From: Phyllosticta citribraziliensis
Lineage: Eukaryota
DNA: 64,000 nucleotides
Direction of reading: 5' to 3'
Assembly: GCF_038025025.1 (NCBI RefSeq)
Contig: NW_027117353.1
Location: 372,001-436,000, forward strand
In this document: one piece after another, positions 2,639-57,349 of the stretch
Numbering within the stretch: position 1 is the stretch's first letter
Layout of the letters: the number at the start of each line of letters is the position of its first letter
Program-made: the position numbers and the translations under genes
Notes under the pieces: generated by a model
Seen by the model: only the letters and a program-made list of their open reading frames with translations
What the model was told of the DNA's origin: nothing
Databases searched by the model: none

Positions 2639-3493
2639 ATGGCACTTGACTGGCATTTATTGTTGATTGGATTGGGTCGTTGGGGCGAGCATAGGTTTTC
2701 TTGAATCACAAAAAGCGCAATTCTTGGACTGGATGTGGCATGATGGCTCTGGTGAACCTTTGATGTGGTATACCATTCGCTTTGGACACAATGCTTTGAA
2801 ACGCTCTGGAGGATAAGCATTCTACGGAATCGATCTAGTCCCTGTTGCGTTGCTCCTATCCCTTTCGACTTCTTGCCGCAATGACGCGCTGTGGTTTCTT
2901 CGGCTGCTGCTTGGCCGTCGACTTAGTCTGCCCTATCGTTGATGTCTGAGAGCTGGCTGTTAAAGTTGATTTGACTGGTTGTTTGGCTGGCACTTTGGCA
3001 AGTTTTGTAGGGCGTAATTTTGGAGGTGCAATGAGGTAGGTGAAGGCAGATTGGGGTAGCAGATGGATTGACGGAGTCACTACTCAGATAAGTCACAATT
3101 ATTCCCCGCGAAAACACACAGCAAACAGCAACCATTCATTGCTTCCCCCAGAACCCGCCCCCTGCCCCTCCCCTCCGTCCGCAGTCCAGTCCAGTCCATC
3201 GTAGTTCATCGCAACCAGCCAAGCACCAACGCCCGCGGCCCCCCCCCCCCCCCCCAGTCCCTGCGCCACGCGCGCAAGGTCCGCCCCCGCAACCACGTCG
3301 TCTTGTTTCGGGCCCTTGGCACTGGCTGCTTGCTCTGTAAGCCGTCAGTCACAGCCTCTTTTCTGCTGCTGCTGCTGCGGCGGCGGCGGCGGAGGCCGTG
3401 GCTGCTGGTCCTCGTTTCTCTTTCTCATCCAAACGAAGGCGCTTTGGCCCCCATGTGCGCTTGTGCTTGCTTCATGTTTGAATCCAATCGGAC

Positions 3494-3549: not shown

Positions 3550-4483
3550 GTGTTGAAACAAGTGTCGCAGCGGCGGAGGCGGCGGTGTGGCTGCTGCTGC
3601 TGCGGTTGCTGTTGGCGGTGGGTTGGCGGACCGCATGCACGCACATGCTTCTGACGACTGATCAGATGCCGTTTTCGGATCTTGGAGTTCTGCTTGTCTT
3701 GACGTCTTCTTGTTTTAGATGTGCGCGTGTCCGACGCATGTGGTGGTGACTTGTGTGCGTGCTGGCTTGTTGGCTTGACTGCTTGCTGCCGGCCTGCCTG
3801 CCTGCCTGCTGCGATGGACAGATGCCACTGTTCGGATGTTCGGATAGTTCGTGCAAGAGGTTGGGTTGGCGAGCGACTATCAAGGTCGCCGGGGTCTGCG
3901 AGGTCGGTGGCTGGGCAGAGTAGATGGAGACGTGGCGGCTGTCTGTCTACCTCGTCTAGGGGAGGGAATAGCAGCGTGCGATGTGGGCAGTTAGGTGAGA
4001 AATATCGGAATGTTGTAGTCGAGGCTCGCATTGGAAAACAGCTTTGGAAGAACCTTTTCGCATTTTGAATAGAACAAGCTACATATCAAGCGCCGTGAAA
4101 AGCTAAACCTCGGAGAAAGAAAATTGAAGAAGAGAAACAGGCCGTGAATTATGTTCCTTTCGTCGCGGCGTCCATCGATCAATCGATCCATCCATCAGTC
4201 ATCGTGTCCAAATATGAGATCGAAGTTGAAAGGGAAAGGGAAAAAGACAACACCATTCCCACAGGAGAACATTGGGGGGACGTTGGTAAACTGGAAAATT
4301 CGCAAACACGAGAGCCGACAGGAAAAAAAAAAAAAAAAGAAAAGAAAACCGCAGAGGGGCAAGATCGAGACGGACAAGAAAACAAATGGTATAATGCGAC
4401 GTCCCAGCGACAACGCCCAGGAAACACACGCAGGAGCAATCTCGGAATCAGGGGTGGGGGGCAAAGGGTGGAAAAGGGAAGTA

Positions 4484-6784
4484 TCACTCCTTGAACGCAA
4501 ACATAGTCCCACATTCAAACTCCGTCCCAAACTCCCAACACTCTCTGACAATTTCCAGTTCGTCCCACCACCAGGTGCCCTCACTGACGAACGAGCCCCA
4601 GGAATCCTTCCAAAGGCCGCGCGCGACCAGTGCGGCGAGCTCACCTTTGAGCCTCGCAGCCGCGTCCTCTGTTTCCTCGTCCGCGGGCGACTCTTCCACG
4701 ACCGGCTCCAACCCGGGCGACCTGTCCGACAGCTTGGGACCGCCGCCGCCGATGATGCCGAAGCGCTTGCTGTGGCTCTCAGCGCCGCCGCCGCTGCCCT
4801 CGCCCGGCCGGCCGCCTCGCATGTCTTCCTGGCGCACCTTGCGCCGCAGCGAGACGGGGCTGGTCTCCTTGCTCTTGCTGCCGCTGCTCGACTTGCCCGA
4901 CCCGGACTCGGCCTTGTCCAGCTTCGATGACGGCGACCACGACCCTTCGATCATCTGCGACATGGCCGTCGCCGGCAGGTGTAGTTTGTGCGCCACCATG
5001 TCTTCGTTGCCCTCGAGAATGTTGAACCCGGCGTCTGCTACCCACTCCGGTATCACAGTGAGCGGCTTGTGGCAGCGTGTGCCGCGCTCGAGTCCCGGAA
5101 GCAGCCGGTCCTCGAGCCAGTCGCGGAAGAGGGGACCGAGCGTTTTGTTGACGGGCGTGGGTTCGACGAGGCGCAGCTCGAGAATGCCGCCGGGCGCGAG
5201 GATGCGGAAAAGGTCGCGGAGGAGCGCTTTCATTTGCGACGAGGGGAGCTGAGCGGGGAGCGTGGCGGCGCGGATGTGGTTGAAGGAGGCAGCGACGTAG
5301 GGAAGGGGGAGGAGGCCGGCGTAGGGAACGGTGAGGGGCTGCACGTTGGAAGGAAGAGGTATGGAGGTGAGAGGCGCTTTGGTGGTGAGGAAGGAGATTT
5401 GCGACTTGGGATATACGGCGGACAGCTGATAAACCTCGGCTGCAAACATGTCAGTATGATCATGTAGTAAGAAAATAGGTAGAATGCGGACCTAGGTTGC
5501 TGTACAACTCGAGAGCGCGCTTGGGTTGTCGGAAGAGAGTAGGAAGGCCCATCAAAGGACCAACGCCTTGGTTCGGGACCAACGAGTTCTCCATATTCTG
5601 CAGCTGGAGTGCCGTCAGAGCCCACAAGTGTCGCTCAACCTCAATTTCACCCTCTCTTTCCGGATGGTCAAAGTCTTCGGGAGCTACATCACTGTTCAAG
5701 TGGCTCAGGATTATCTCAGGCCCGGCCTTCTCCATGCGGCGAATGAAGCGCTGAAAGTCGGACAGCGTTTTGGCGTCGGGCTCGCAGACAAACATGTCGT
5801 CAAACGTGGGCGTAGCATCGGAGGACACTCGGCTTCCGTGAGACTTGTTGGAGGCAATGTCCCAATCCGAAGGCGCTTGCCAATTGCACGCAGGGGTGGC
5901 CTTCTCAGCGGCACCCTGATCAACAAACGAGTCGATTTCGTTATCGGCGTAGATGTGGGAGGAAACTGAAGCTGACAGAGATATGGAACTCGTGGACCTG
6001 GAAATGTTAACCATCACCGACTTGATGGATTTACCTATGCGACTGGGTCGTAAAACGCGAGGTCTAAGGCAAAAAATATCATCCCGCGAGAACGCATTAG
6101 ACGCATGTGTCATTTCACTCACCGGCCGTGTAGCGACGGAGATGTCTGCTCCTCATCAGTACTCGCGCCATTGGAAGGACACCAGACCTGTGGATGAGAT
6201 TGTGAGAAAAATAGTAGAAAGATATGCGGAAAGATGCGTACTTCTTGAGTCGTTGTGCGCGTCACATATGAATTCTCGCTCAGTGACTGTACTTCATGCA
6301 CCTGAACCTTGCCAACGACTTTCTTGTCCTTGTGTGATTCTTCGTCCGGCTCGTGGCCATTGGCTTTGACTGTCGACACTGCTTATCTCAACATGACCAT
6401 CCACATTGATTGTGACCAGACGGACGTACCGGATGAAGTCGTAAAGCACGACTTGGGTATGCTCTCGCTCGAATTCGCGGGGATCGCGCCAGGAGGCGCA
6501 AGTGAAGTCTTGCCTGACAGCTTATATCCAGACTTTGCATGCCCTGCCTCCAGTCGATTCGACGATTTGGACAACTTCGGGGATCTTCGCGGCTGGACCG
6601 ACTTGACGGACTTTTTGCGAGTTGGAAGGGACCAGGAGGAGGCGCTACTGTCGATTTGAAGACTCGGGGCAGAGGTGTTCTTTTCGCGGTCCCTCAGTTT
6701 CCTCTCTCGCGCCTGGCCCACCGTCTCGGCGGTTTCATGCGTCCACGAAAGGTCTGCGGAAAACATTGAGGTAGCAGTTACCAT
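4484..6784 (-). CDS. Multi-exon fungal protein with a C-terminal class I SAM-methyltransferase-like fold
   Basis: Joins ORFs 6383..6784, 6119..6379, 5460..6122 and 4484..5449, with GTACGT/GTACGC/GTGAGT donors visible. The C-terminal segment 'LPYVAASFNHI...LRDLFRILAPGGILEL' resembles methyltransferase motifs II/III. Internal exon boundaries are approximate. Confidence 0.65.
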
Positions 6785-52685: not shown

Positions 52686-54633
52686 ATGCCTTCGAACGCC
52701 TCAATTGAGGAGGATCATCGCAACGGCGCCCAGAGCATCGGCCAGGTTATCGAGTACATCCAGGACCGTCTGTACCTAGCTTCGTATACCCACCCGCCCA
52801 ACGCGCACACGCCGTTTCCCTACCCGGTGTCCAAGGAGCGCAAGTCTCCCAGCAAGCGCTCCTCGCGAGCCCAACAGAGCACCGCTGCCTCCAAGCCCAG
52901 CTCCCCTCCTCCCGTCTACTTTTCCGTCGACCGCCGCCTGCTCTACAATGCCTTCCACGCCGACTTTGGCCCACTCCACATAGGCCACCTCTACCGCTTC
53001 GCCGTGCTGCTCCACGAGGTGCTTGCGGCCCCCAAGAACGAAGACAGGCCCGTCGTATTCTGGTGCCATGCCGACTCGAGGAGTATGCAGCAACCCCGCT
53101 CCCCTAGCATCGTCACTGACCTTCTTAGGCCGCGCAAATGCCGCTTGCTTGCTTGCTTGCTACATGGTGCTCATCCAAAACTGGCCGCCACACCTTGCCC
53201 TTGCGCCAATTGCCCAGATGGATCCGCCGTGCATGCCATTCAGAGATGCCGGATACAGCCAGGCCGACTACATTATCAACATTCAGGACGTCGTCTACGG
53301 CGTGTGGAAAGCGAAGGAGGAAGGTATCTGCAGCCTGCGGGATTTCAGCCTCGAGGAGTATGAAAAGTTTGAGCGCGTGGACATGGGCGACTTCAACTGG
53401 GTGTCGCCCAACTTTCTCGCCTTTGCATCGCCCCAGCACCTTCCAGCCAAGGTGATTCCCACCTCGGACCCGCTTTACGCCCAGGTGCCAAAGACGATTG
53501 CAGAACTTGAAAAGGCCGACATTCCCACTCCGTTCAAGAACGTCCTGGCGCACTTTTCGACGCGCAACATAGGGCTGGTTGTCCGCCTCAACTCGGAGCT
53601 CTACTCGCCAACATACTTTACGGCGCTGGGCATTCAGCACCTGGACATGATTTTTGATGACGGAACTTGCCCTCCTCTCAACCTTGTCCGCAACTTTGTC
53701 AACTTGGCCCACGAGATGATTACGGTGCGGAAGAAGGGCATCGCGGTGCACTGCAAGGCTGGCCTGGGGCGCACGGGATGTCTGATTGGTGCCTACCTGA
53801 TCTACAGGCATGGGTTCACTGCCAACGAAATCATTGCCTTTATGCGATTCATGAGGCCCGGAATGGTCGTTGGCCCTCAACAACACTGGCTCCATCTCAA
53901 CCAGGGCACTTTCAGGGAGTGGTGGTTCGAGGACAGTTGGAAGGAGAAGATGGCGCTTCAACCGGCGACGCCCACCAAGTCGTATAGACAGCGCTTGGCC
54001 AGCAACGGACAAACCTTTACGCCTCCCAACGGCAGCCAGAAGCGCGCGGCGCTTGGCGAAATCAATACCAACGATCACCGCGTAACGTCTGCATCCCTGG
54101 GAACCACAGTTCATGACGACAATCTCCCTGCGCCTACTCCTGGGCAGCCCCGCAAGACTAGCAAGATTTACGGGCCTGCAAGCCGTCACCAGTCGCCGTG
54201 TCGCGGGCATGAGAATGAGCCGTACATAATGCCAGACTCTGAAGTCATCAACGTGCGCCGCGCGTCTGCCGTCGAGCCTGAGTCGGACGAGGAATATCAG
54301 CTTCGCATGCTGGCCAAGCGTGCTGCCTCCCGCTCCCCCAACTCCAAGACCCCAACGAGCAACAGCAAGAGGCGAGCCGTTAGCTGCACGACAACCACCA
54401 TGTCCACGACGACTACGACGTGGAATGGAGGCGAGAGTGATGTTGAGAACCGCGTCGGAAAACCCAAGACGCCCTTGGGCAAAACTGGCAGCGGTGCTGG
54501 CGCAATCAGCGTCTCCAAGACCAGGGGAAGCCCCACCAGACGAAGCACTGATGGCAAGACGAGCGGCGTGAGGAAGACTAGCGGCAGGGTCGGGAGCGTG
54601 GGCAGCGCGAGCACAAGGGCCAAAAATGTCTGA
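52686..54633 (+). CDS. CDC14: Dual-specificity phosphatase Cdc14
   Basis: Motifs 'IEYIQDRLY', 'FHADFGPLHIGHLYRF', 'RANAACL', 'HCKAGLGRTG' and 'RFMRPGMVVGPQQHWL'. Intron 53083-53128. Confidence 0.96.
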
Positions 54634-55879
54634 TCCGCAATGGCGTCTTGGAGACGAGAATTCTTATTGACCAGAGCTCGTCATCTAGAGACCATTGCGC
54701 TTCAGACGTTGGCGTTTGCGACGATCGTGGGTTTGGAGATCCAAGGGTGGCGAGTTGCAGTTCGGTTCCTCTTCTACTTTTTACGGATCTTCGTCCCGCC
54801 GTCATGACCACCGCCCGGAAGGTTGTTTATGTCTTTGTACAGCACGACCACAGCAGCAGCAGCAGCAGCGTCATCAACGGCACCAAAACCACGACTTTTA
54901 CGACAGCGGTCCTTTTCTTCATCGTCCTGTTTATCGTCGCCGTTCTGTTTCTTCTTCTCGCATGGGGTTGCTATCGCAGCGATCCAGCTTTCGATGAGCG
55001 TTCTCGTTTTGAATCCTGCTTTGTTGCGTCACGCAAAGGATGATTGACGACGACTGCCTGTGGAGGGCTAGGCTACATGGCATGATGTTTTGGGGCCATG
55101 TCGGGCAGTTGAGGATGTTTTTGATGGGATGGATGGCTATTTGCTGGGTGTCTCTAGGGGGGCTGCTTTGTACACTTGGCTACTGGTGCTGTCCAAATCG
55201 GGCTGGGTTGTTGGGTTGGGTTTCCATCCTGCTCTTGGGATGACGCATGCAGGCTACAGCTGTCATCCTCTTCCCCGGCTGTCGATGACGGCCTTGCTTC
55301 TCAACAACCCACAAGGTCTCTGTTTTATTCTTTTCTCTTTCACGACTCTCGTCTCGTCGGTCGGTTCGTCAGTAGGGTGGGCGTCAGGAAGGGAAGGAGA
55401 ATGGGGGGTTTTATTCTTTCCTCTCGTATGCTGATTTCTCTCACGGCTCGTCGTCGTCGTCTGTTTGGCGTTGTCTTTTGTTCTTTCGTCTAATTTCTTT
55501 GGGCGTTTTGAGCGCTTAGGTTTCTGGTCAACGGATGGATGGAAGGATGGGTGGACGGCCGGACAGGATGGACGGATATTTGAAGGGGCGGGTTAATATG
55601 GCCTCGAACCTCGAATTCGAGCTCGAGGCCGCAGCCCAAGACTCTTTATTTCTCGTTTGAATGGCCAAAAAAGTTCAGATTATCGTTGTTGATTCTGATG
55701 GTGTGGATTGCGACTGGCCGAGAGCATCGTTGCTGTTGACGGTGTTTGTGATGAGTCTGTTGATGCCGCTCCATGGTCGAGGTCTACTCTGAGCGGAGCA
55801 GTGCTTCTAGTTCACCTCGTGTTGCTGCCACGTCTGCCACCGATAATGGCCCCAGCGTCTCCTTCCCTCCCTCCTGACC

Positions 55880-55888
55880 TATATAAAC
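55880..55888 (+). promoter_or_regulatory. TATA box upstream of the U2-like RNA gene
   Basis: TATATAAAC followed by a pyrimidine-rich tract, about 45 nt before the U2-like 5' end. Confidence 0.55.
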
Positions 55889-55926
55889 CCACTCCCCGCC
55901 CGCAATCCCCATCTCCTCTCCTCTCC

Positions 55927-56122
55927 ACGCTCTCTTCGCAACTCCGCTTAGATCAATTGTAGTATCTGCTCTTGTAAGTGCAGCTTAATCAGTGAAACGG
56001 ATCCTTTGGACCCTGCTTGATCAGCCTTTTTTGGAGCTGGGATTGCCAGGCGCCGTTGGACATGCTCATGCGCTTTGTGGTCATGGTGTCGTCCCTGTTG
56101 CCCTGCTGGGTGGGTGATGCGA
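55927..56122 (+). ncRNA. Divergent U2 snRNA variant or pseudogene (~195 nt)
   Basis: ACGCTCTCTTCGC-AACTCC-GCTTAGATCAATTGTAGTATCTGCTCTT matches the fungal U2 5' end (CTCTCTTTGCCTTTTGGCTTAGATCAAGTGTAGTATCTGTTCTT, recalled from memory), including the branch-recognition GTAGTA. It continues with a TTAATC stem-IIa loop, a small IIb hairpin, a U6-GG Sm-like site and two 3' hairpins. Confidence 0.75.
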
Positions 56123-56753
56123 AGGGGGGTGTGGAGGATGGGATGGGGATGGGCTTGCTTTAGGTGCACTGGGTTGTTGAGGAGGTGAGGTGAAGAGAAG
56201 GCGATGCGGGCTAGGATGGGACGGGATGGGAGGATGCTTGTCTCGTTTCTCGAGGCTCTTGCTGTATATAATGAATGGTCAAGAACACAACGTCGTGGTC
56301 GTCGTCCCATTTACATATCATGTGCATGTAGGTCTGACAGACTGCCGTGGGGATCCCCCGCCAGCAGACCATTGGCAGACGTCGTTTCTAATGGGCGCGC
56401 GCGATTGGCCGGCGCCCGTGGTTGTCGACCGGACGGCCAGGCACCCTGGTGGCTTCGCCCTCACCGCCCGACCGCACCGCCGCGCCCCATTCGCTCACCC
56501 ACCCTCTCTGTGTGTGTACGGACGGACTCCAGCTCCATCTCTCCGCTGCCTCCCTCGACAACCCACCTTTTACTCCACGCCCGCACCCGATTGACACCGC
56601 AAACGCCCCGAACCCGAACCTCCGCATCAACACCACCACCGCACCCAGCTCACGCTCAGACCACCACCTCTAACACTACGCACGCCTCGTCGCCCGACAA
56701 CCTACAACGCTACACTGTAGCTACCACGTTGTTAGCTGGATACGAGCAGCAGC

Positions 56754-57349
56754 ATGACGATTGCGGAGAAGATCAAGGACGCGGTTGGGCTGGGCGGCGC
56801 CGCCGGTGAGTCTGTCTGTCTGGGTTGTTGGAGCGATGCTCCTGTCTGCCTGTCCACCTGTGCCATCTATCTCTCTGTCGCTACCTCCACACATCTACGC
56901 ATCTATTCGTCGTCAATGCCAATTGGGCAGCCCTCTCCCCCTCTCCCCCCTCCATCCCTCACCACACGAACGACACCACGCGTCTCTGAACGCCAGCTAA
57001 CAAGAACGACAACAGGCCCCGCATCCCGCGACGACATGGCCGCCGCCAAGCTGCCGCTCGCCTACCGCGACGGCTGCGCGCACCTGCTCATCCCGCTGAA
57101 CCGCTGCCGCGTCGACGAGTACTACTTGCCATGGAAGTGCGAGGTGCGTAACAATTTGGGGTTGGGGTTGGGGTTGGGGGGGCAGTGGAGAGAGAGAGGG
57201 AGAGGGGAGAGGGAGGGTCGCGCTAACGCCGTGCCCACGCGCAGAACGAACGCCACTCGTATGAAAAGTGCCAGTACGACGAGTTTAAGAAGCGGGTTGC
57301 GAAGATGGACGAGCTGAAGCGGGAGAAGGAGTATACGCGGAGCAATTGA
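56754..57349 (+). CDS. NDUFB7: NADH:ubiquinone oxidoreductase B18 subunit (NDUFB7)
   Basis: Exons 56754-56805, 57016-57143 and 57245-57349. Twin CX9C motif 'LPLAYRDGCAHLLIPLNRCR...LPWKCENERHSYEKCQYDEFKKRV'. Confidence 0.93.

Follow-up and report, generated by a model that had tools for sequence, protein, structure and literature searches.

A 64-kb stretch of the Phyllosticta citribraziliensis genome (contig NW_027117353.1, positions 372,001 to 436,000; hereafter the window, whose numbering we use throughout) carries on its forward strand a strongly diverged copy of the gene for U2, one of the small nuclear RNAs (snRNAs) of the spliceosome. The whole locus, from a TATA box to the U2-like 3' end, spans 55880-56128, and all features described below lie on the same strand. 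We propose that this copy is a U2 paralog in decay, perhaps still transcribed, and place the probability of this reading at roughly 0.55. The original prediction, made from the sequence, had favored an expressed variant U2 and named a pseudogene as the alternative; that alternative fits the data at least as well.

Results

Identity of the locus

Judged by its sequence, the locus certainly descends from U2. In a search of 601 bases at a permissive setting, the Rfam U2 model (RF00004) aligned to 55926-56128 over its entire length (model positions 1-192 of 192), with a score of 30.1 bits and an E-value of 3.3e-4. The gathering score of RF00004 is 46 bits, and the locus falls short of it; at Rfam gathering scores, the 64-kb window gave no match of any family. 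The U2 model that the original prediction had proposed as a check on identity thus aligned from end to end but scored below the cut-off. U2 was the sole snRNA among the permissive Rfam matches, and other snRNA families were rejected as candidates for the locus. The score stems from the 5' end of the RNA, since 55972-56160 searched alone against Rfam yielded no match at E-values up to 10. The U2-like RNA body is about 200 nt long (55927..56126), and cmscan flags nine non-standard pairs in the U2 alignment overall.

A search with a 28-nt U2 core found a single occurrence in the window, matching at 26 of 28 bases, and 0 of 100 shuffled sequences contained one. The intact part of this core (55946..55964) comprises the U6-pairing segment GCUUAGAUCAA at 55946-55956 and the branch-site-pairing GUAGUA at 55959-55964. 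The two core substitutions, G-to-U at 55957 and U-to-C at 55969, both fall outside GCUUAGAUC and GUAGUA. The claim that these two pairing elements are kept was thus correct, as was the claim that near-invariant positions are altered: both core substitutions are present, together with the changes at the apex of stem-loop I. The copy had also been described as full-length. That description is right, because the 3' end is colinear with published Pezizomycotina U2 genes, even though Rfam is blind to the 3' half.

Comparison with canonical U2 genes

Our comparison draws on part of Supplementary Data 1 of Davila Lopez et al. (2008; PMC2396436), in which U2 predictions are scored by the authors' own model, so that the bit scores quoted from it are not directly comparable with Rfam bits. 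The part used holds 26 U2 entries from 10 Pezizomycotina species (Ascosphaera apis, Aspergillus nidulans, A. niger, A. terreus, Chaetomium globosum, Coccidioides immitis, Fusarium oxysporum, F. verticillioides, Gibberella zeae and Histoplasma capsulatum). Scores of 95-130 bits are reached by 23 of the 26 entries, and every one of the 10 species has at least one canonical U2 in this range. The paper describes fungi as having one or a few genes per snRNA. Because canonical copies occur in 10 of 10 Pezizomycotina species, a normal U2 gene elsewhere in the Phyllosticta genome is very probable.

Positions were counted by eye against the canonical U2 of A. nidulans, C. immitis, C. globosum and G. 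zeae. Among these four genera the first 48 nt are identical save for the first two bases and the stem I loop, and the entire stem-loop IIa and several 3' motifs are identical as well (Davila Lopez et al., 2008). The U2-like body is colinear with them from a 5' end reading CCA.GCUCUCUU to a 3' end reading GUGUC...GAUGCGAA. It differs at about 19 of the 108 positions that are invariant across the four genera, which span two fungal classes. The divergence is roughly even along the molecule: 15% of the invariant positions have changed in the 5' part (9 of 61) and 21% in the 3' part (10 of 47). In addition, the copy has two insertions, one of 1 nt and one of 5 nt (GUAAG, 55974-55978).

The kind of change is also informative. 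Among the 19 substitutions, about 9 replace A/T with G/C, which brings the sequence closer to its GC-rich surroundings; unconstrained sequence would drift in this direction. In stems I and IIa, each change for which the original pair can be reconstructed disrupts pairing, and none is compensated; a C to U change at the base of stem IV is the only inferable pair change that still pairs, as G.U. Functional elements are thus lost and the substitutions appear, by eye, random with respect to pairing, as expected of a pseudogene. Repeat-induced point mutation was considered as a source of the changes and rejected, as about 2 of the 19 are C-to-T or G-to-A.

Taken element by element, the canonical Pezizomycotina gene (193 nt, as in A. 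nidulans contig 1.84:492355-492547 and G. zeae supercontig 3.1:1445813-1446005; Davila Lopez et al., 2008) and the copy described here (about 200 nt) share their element order, a fungal-type 5' end, an identical U6-pairing and GUAGUA core, the stem IIa loop core UUAAUC, the base of stem IV and the 3' tail GCGAA. Unlike the canonical gene, this copy has the substitutions and 5-nt insertion just described, a broken stem I apex and stem IIa, an Sm site without its A, an altered stem-loop III apex and stem-loop IV loop, and a sub-threshold score in Rfam. The closest published comparison would be the U2 entries of Stagonospora nodorum, which were not found in the available part of the supplement. 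Our search of the available literature on U2 and snRNAs in Phyllosticta, Dothideomycetes and Pezizomycotina found no account of such a gene.

Stems, Sm site and folding

The original prediction held that structure is retained despite sequence drift. Our data do not support this: stems I and IIa have lost pairs that no second change restores, and the 3' helices are no better than those of shuffled sequence. Stem-loop I persists as a remnant of 3 + 2 bp around a 6-nt loop (55933..55952), as judged from the fold, cmscan and the Pezizomycotina comparison. The canonical Pezizomycotina form is a GCC-loop-GGC (Davila Lopez et al., 2008). Here the apex reads GCA-ACUC-CGC, with six positions altered within 9 nt. 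The upper stem is not properly paired; its top C-G has become A.C, and cmscan reports 2 of the 7 model pairs as non-standard.

In yeast, stem IIa is needed for U2 function. In the copy, comparison with canonical genes shows that stem-loop IIa is degenerate (55979..55996) and reads UGCAG - CUUAAUCA - GUGAA, versus UUCAG - UUUAAUCU - CUGAA in canonical Pezizomycotina U2 (Davila Lopez et al., 2008). Measured against the canonical UUCAG/CUGAA stem, 3 of 5 pairs are left and 2 of 5 are broken without compensation; in its own 5-pair alignment of the stem, cmscan likewise flags 2 non-standard pairs. The loop still pairs long-range with a downstream UUGAU, forming 5 pairs in the minimum-free-energy (MFE) fold.

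Immediately before stem IIa lies the 5-nt insertion recognized in the by-eye comparison. With the U that follows it forms GUAAGU (55974..55979), which resembles a consensus 5' splice site directly 3' of the branch-binding region. An intron within the U2-like gene was considered and rejected: any GU...AG removal would delete stems IIa and IIb or leave an intron of 10-19 nt, and the Rfam alignment, judged by eye, needs no large insertion.

Downstream, cmscan and the fold place a hairpin like stem-loop IIb (GGAUCC UUU GGACCC, 55999..56013), an element that varies between species. The Sm-like site follows at 56027..56034 (RNA positions 101-108) and reads U6GG, with the leading A replaced by U/C; canonical Pezizomycotina U2 has AUUUUUG at this position (Davila Lopez et al., 2008). 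The absence of the leading A had been correctly noted in the original prediction. A stem III-like helix occupies 56041..56082 in both cmscan and fold; it has 12 pairs, of which 4 are G.U, and a single C.U mismatch, and its apex has changed at two positions, from the canonical GCUUGC to ACAUGC. The stem-loop IV-like element (56086..56123), placed by the same two methods and by the by-eye comparison, keeps its GUGUC/GAUGC base, while its loop motif has changed at two positions from ACACU to GCCCU.

Folding energies lend the RNA no support beyond that of shuffled sequence. For the whole RNA the z-score was -0.70, and 52 of 200 shuffles were at least as stable. Values for the 3' domain (z +1.20, 178 of 200 shuffles), the stem III part (z +0.71, 159 of 200) and the stem IV part (z -1.12, 28 of 200) were similarly unexceptional. 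The earlier claim that the 3' half can still fold holds to the extent that both of its proposed helices appear in MFE folds, but their stability does not exceed that of shuffles.

TATA motifs and flanking tracts

The TATA box, TATATAAA, lies at 55880..55887, with its first T 47 nt 5' of the inferred +1. The gene had been called TATA-driven; the box does stand at promoter distance, and its role as a promoter is putative. The motif TATAWAA occurs twice in the 64 kb on both strands together, at 55880-55886 and at 56265-56271, both on the forward strand. This count is ordinary, with 1.76 occurrences expected in shuffles; the placement is striking. A 16-nt repeat (D2) surrounds both TATA motifs, and a tandem-repeat remnant was therefore considered; it was rejected, as no second U2-like sequence follows. 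Between the TATA box and the RNA start lies a pyrimidine (CT)-rich tract (55888..55926), of a kind usual at start sites in filamentous fungi.

At the other end, the second TATATAA is followed by AAUGAA (56270-56275, overlapping the end of TATATAA), and an RNA-derived contig ends at 56305. This segment (56265..56305), recognized by motif search and from the contig, may be a 3'-end or poly(A) signal, either of the U2-like unit or of a long 3' untranslated region (UTR) of CDC14. In Schizosaccharomyces pombe, snoRNA genes use poly(A) sites, and snRNA termination is unaffected by loss of the cleavage nuclease (PMC6195540, consulted in part). Given this result for snRNAs, a poly(A)-signal reading of 56265-56305 stays an inference.

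The flanks are also complementary to each other. Pyrimidine-rich sequence at 55850-55926 can pair with purine-rich sequence at 56124-56250, which contains GGGAUGGG-type repeats, and together they form an inverted repeat (I1). The fold of 55845-56260 has a z-score of -3.36, with 0 of 100 shuffles as stable. This signal may reflect mere composition, or it may reflect a long stem in a read-through RNA.

RNA-derived cover

Of the sequencing runs used here (X1-X4), none is registered as RNA. Contigs of X1 and X4 nonetheless carry the spliced junction of NDUFB7, which shows that these two runs contain complementary DNA. RNA from at least one data set includes the locus. One X1 contig runs on without a break from CDC14, across the TATA box and the U2-like body and 177 nt further, and stops 30 nt past AAUGAA. 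Such contigs merge overlapping transcripts and carry no information on strand, ends, level or separate transcripts; the X1 cover may be read-through from CDC14. No contig was found in X4 over 55840-56650 or in X1 over 56306-56594, gaps in cover that we do not count as evidence. Pieces from X2 and X3 are identical to the window and, for that reason, yield no measure of divergence.

Flanking genes

The window is fungal DNA. The CDC14 reading frame (53200-54633) shares 97% identity with a cluster of proteins that bears the name of Phyllosticta citriasiana, and its further best matches are from other Botryosphaeriales and Dothideomycetes. Placement of the locus between CDC14 and NDUFB7, as first described, is borne out by protein matches and Pfam: the upstream neighbor has CDC14-type phosphatase domains, and the downstream neighbor is NDUFB7 (PF05676, E 1.5e-17). 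NDUFB7 intron 1 (56806-57015, 210 nt) is of the GU...AG type and has a CUAAC branch motif about 15 nt 5' of the AG. It is confirmed by spliced contigs from runs X1 and X4, which have a loose end at 56806 and resume at 57017. A 120-aa open reading frame lies over the U2-like locus on the minus strand; a protein search for translated relatives found none, and there was no Pfam match.

Divergent U2 copies in other organisms

Divergent U2 copies are known from other Pezizomycotina. F. oxysporum (2193125-2193322, 51.68 bits) and F. verticillioides (2253470-2253667, 56.20 bits) have a divergent 198-nt U2 paralog in common (Davila Lopez et al., 2008). These paralogs resemble our copy in being full-length, low-scoring and of similar length, and they sit beside canonical copies. 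The pattern of change is the reverse. In the Fusarium paralogs the core is changed, in the U6-pairing and branch-adjacent segments, and the stems remain paired, with a compensated stem IIa (UUGAGG/CCUCAA), a compensated stem IV (CCUUGG/CCAAG), and the stem I GCC/GGC and stem-loop IV loop kept; in the Phyllosticta copy the core is kept and the stems are broken. The Fusarium paralogs illustrate what a maintained variant looks like, and the window copy has the opposite pattern. The two share only one or two derived bases, which does not support a common origin, and judging from these sequences they probably arose independently. F. verticillioides has a further U2 copy, of 73.35 bits, with several small insertions. 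We found no discussion of the divergent Fusarium paralogs in the available part of the main text of Davila Lopez et al. (2008).

Animal variant snRNAs and pseudogenes (human, PMC8457000, consulted in part; bovine U2) offer a second parallel, in that they belong to multi-copy families whose diverged copies may be dead or may form variant small nuclear ribonucleoprotein particles (snRNPs). The U-to-C change (CUGCUCUU) recurs in some bovine U2 pseudogenes. The majority of U2 pseudogenes in animals are retro-copies or are truncated, and lack a promoter, whereas the window copy keeps an upstream TATA box and, unlike the retro-copies, has no A-tail and no target-site duplication. A processed retro-pseudogene was accordingly ruled out by the TATA box at -47, the full length, the G-rich 3' flank, and the absence of an A-tail and of a direct repeat hugging the gene.

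Searches of other DNA recovered no relative of the copy. A scan of metagenomes with the variant core found 4 loci, all from unrelated eukaryotes with high-scoring U2 and none kin to the window copy. U2 genes in this set that have the same G-to-U change (AAUUGUAGUA) score 121.7-157.6 bits, and the change at 55957 is thus compatible with a working U2. A scan of genome contigs with a degenerate core found 84 loci, all of them eukaryotic host DNA in bacterial metagenome-assembled genome (MAG) records and none fungal-like. At the two positions that differ in the window copy, all 33 unique U2 sequences traceable to that scan carry the canonical bases, G and U.

In three of the metagenome contigs (L001:2185-3264, L003:750-2123 and L004:90-1168), U3, U5, U1, U2 and U4 of a eukaryote form a compact cluster in the ribosomal DNA spacer by the small-subunit (SSU) rRNA; in L003 the cluster also lies between the large-subunit (LSU) rRNA/5S and the SSU rRNA. 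The U2 of these clusters has the AAUUGUAGUA change and scores 121.7 bits. A fourth (L002) has three U2 matches, at 359-554, 3296-3445 and 4469-4542: one is a complete copy that has AAUUG and scores 157.6 bits, another has AAGUG and an internal deletion and scores 117.9 bits, and the third is a fragment of 35.4 bits. The bacterial MAG records (L005-L015 and others, one labelled Hormoscilla) contain eukaryotic U2 in long tandem arrays that repeat about every 1378 bp. These arrays are evidently host DNA that was binned in, and they have a compensated variant stem-loop I apex, GCUC-UCAA-GAGC.

Discussion

The data are best accommodated by a duplicate that is being lost. The copy would be an extra, DNA-level copy of a Pezizomycotina-type U2 gene with its own TATA promoter, in a Phyllosticta-like Dothideomycete; its promoter, full length, missing A-tail and missing flanking duplication argue that it is not a retro-pseudogene. 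It has lost the top of stem-loop I, stem IIa, the Sm-site A, the stem-loop III apex and the stem-loop IV loop motif, all of which canonical U2 genes of the subphylum hold invariant, and it has acquired 5 nt after the branch-binding region, ahead of stem IIa. On this reading it would have drifted under relaxed constraint, and canonical U2 genes at other loci would supply the spliceosome. Any RNA that the copy still yields, whether from its own promoter or by read-through from CDC14, would assemble poorly, and the copy would be en route to a pseudogene.

Several observations weigh against decay. The U6-pairing GCUUAGAUC and GUAGUA carry zero substitutions; at a neutral decay of about 13-18%, the chance of so untouched a core is about 4-11%, a figure that involves a partly post hoc choice of block. 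The sole two TATAWAA motifs in the window bracket the U2-like gene, one of them at promoter distance, and at the same level of decay both would survive by chance with a likelihood of about 5-17%. The six changes clustered in the 9 nt of the stem I apex may be a single event, and the true decay may then be lower than the count suggests. A 3691-nt X1 contig covers 55300-56305 with zero differences from the window. Moreover, the canonical parent in this genome is postulated rather than observed, and the comparison set is one without a Dothideomycete U2.

The main rival is an expressed variant U2 under selection, transcribed from its own TATA promoter and acting, with altered stems I and IIa, in a minor or specialised U2 snRNP or a regulatory RNP. 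Such a variant is possible, though we consider it clearly less probable than decay. It would account for the intact U6-pairing and branch-site-pairing core; for the TATA box at promoter distance and the AT-rich downstream signal, the only two such motifs in 64 kb; and for an RNA-derived contig over the locus that ends 30 nt past AAUGAA. It is also consistent with the retained long-range pairing of the stem IIa loop with UUGAU, with the tolerance of the 55957 G-to-U change in bona fide U2 genes, and with the existence of conserved divergent U2 paralogs in Fusarium. Other evidence points the other way. The breaks in stems I and IIa are uncompensated, the Sm-site A is lost, the stem-loop IV loop motif is changed, about 19 changes fall at sites invariant across two fungal classes, and there is no fold signal above shuffles. 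Moreover, the X1 contig, continuous as it is with CDC14, shows no separate transcript, strand or level. A narrower version of this idea, to which we give slightly less credence, is that of a selected U2-derived small RNA with a promoter, a 3'-end signal and an exact core, which has lost stem IIa and kept the long-range pairing.

Alternatively, the U2-derived stretch could be part of a long CDC14 3' UTR or read-through RNA that ends near 56305, with any role exerted, for example, through its complementary CT- and GA-rich flanks. A single X1 contig does run from CDC14 through the TATA box and the U2-like body to 56305, and the flanks do pair, with 55845-56260 folding more stably than all of its 100 shuffles. 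We nevertheless regard this explanation as improbable: contigs merge overlapping transcripts, so that continuity does not prove one RNA; the z-score may merely reflect segregated pyrimidine- and purine-rich tracts; and a TATA box at promoter distance is left unexplained. Least probable of all, and by our estimate very unlikely, is that the locus is the principal U2 of the organism, divergent in a lineage-specific way. The 64-kb window, the sole DNA searched, has no second U2, the core pairing elements are intact, and the U1 entries of the Dothideomycete S. nodorum reach no more than 36.5 and 32.7 bits (Davila Lopez et al., 2008), which implies that genuine snRNAs of this class can score low. 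However, 10 of 10 Pezizomycotina species keep a near-identical canonical U2, and an intron-rich fungus with a standard CUAAC branch site, as in the NDUFB7 intron, would hardly be expected to manage with a single U2 whose stem IIa is broken.

If the locus is a decaying duplicate, as we favor, its significance is that of a routine annotation point. A sub-threshold locus of this kind should be labelled a pseudogene or variant and not a U2 gene, and the Rfam threshold would correctly separate it from working copies. Divergent or decaying U2 copies beside canonical ones are already present in published fungal data, and the locus is therefore of modest interest unless conservation and expression are shown. 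A better lead may be the divergent U2 paralog with intact structure that two Fusarium species share (Davila Lopez et al., 2008).

The less probable outcomes would have wider consequences. A selected U2-derived RNA would be held in one U2 conformational state and could act as a specialised or competing (regulatory) U2 particle, and, together with the Fusarium paralogs, it would make variant U2 snRNPs a recurrent feature of Pezizomycotina. Were the locus conserved and expressed, it would join a very short list of candidate variant spliceosomal RNAs from fungi, whose snRNA families are small, and its loss of stem IIa with retention of catalytic-core pairing would be a useful natural experiment on U2 conformational switching.

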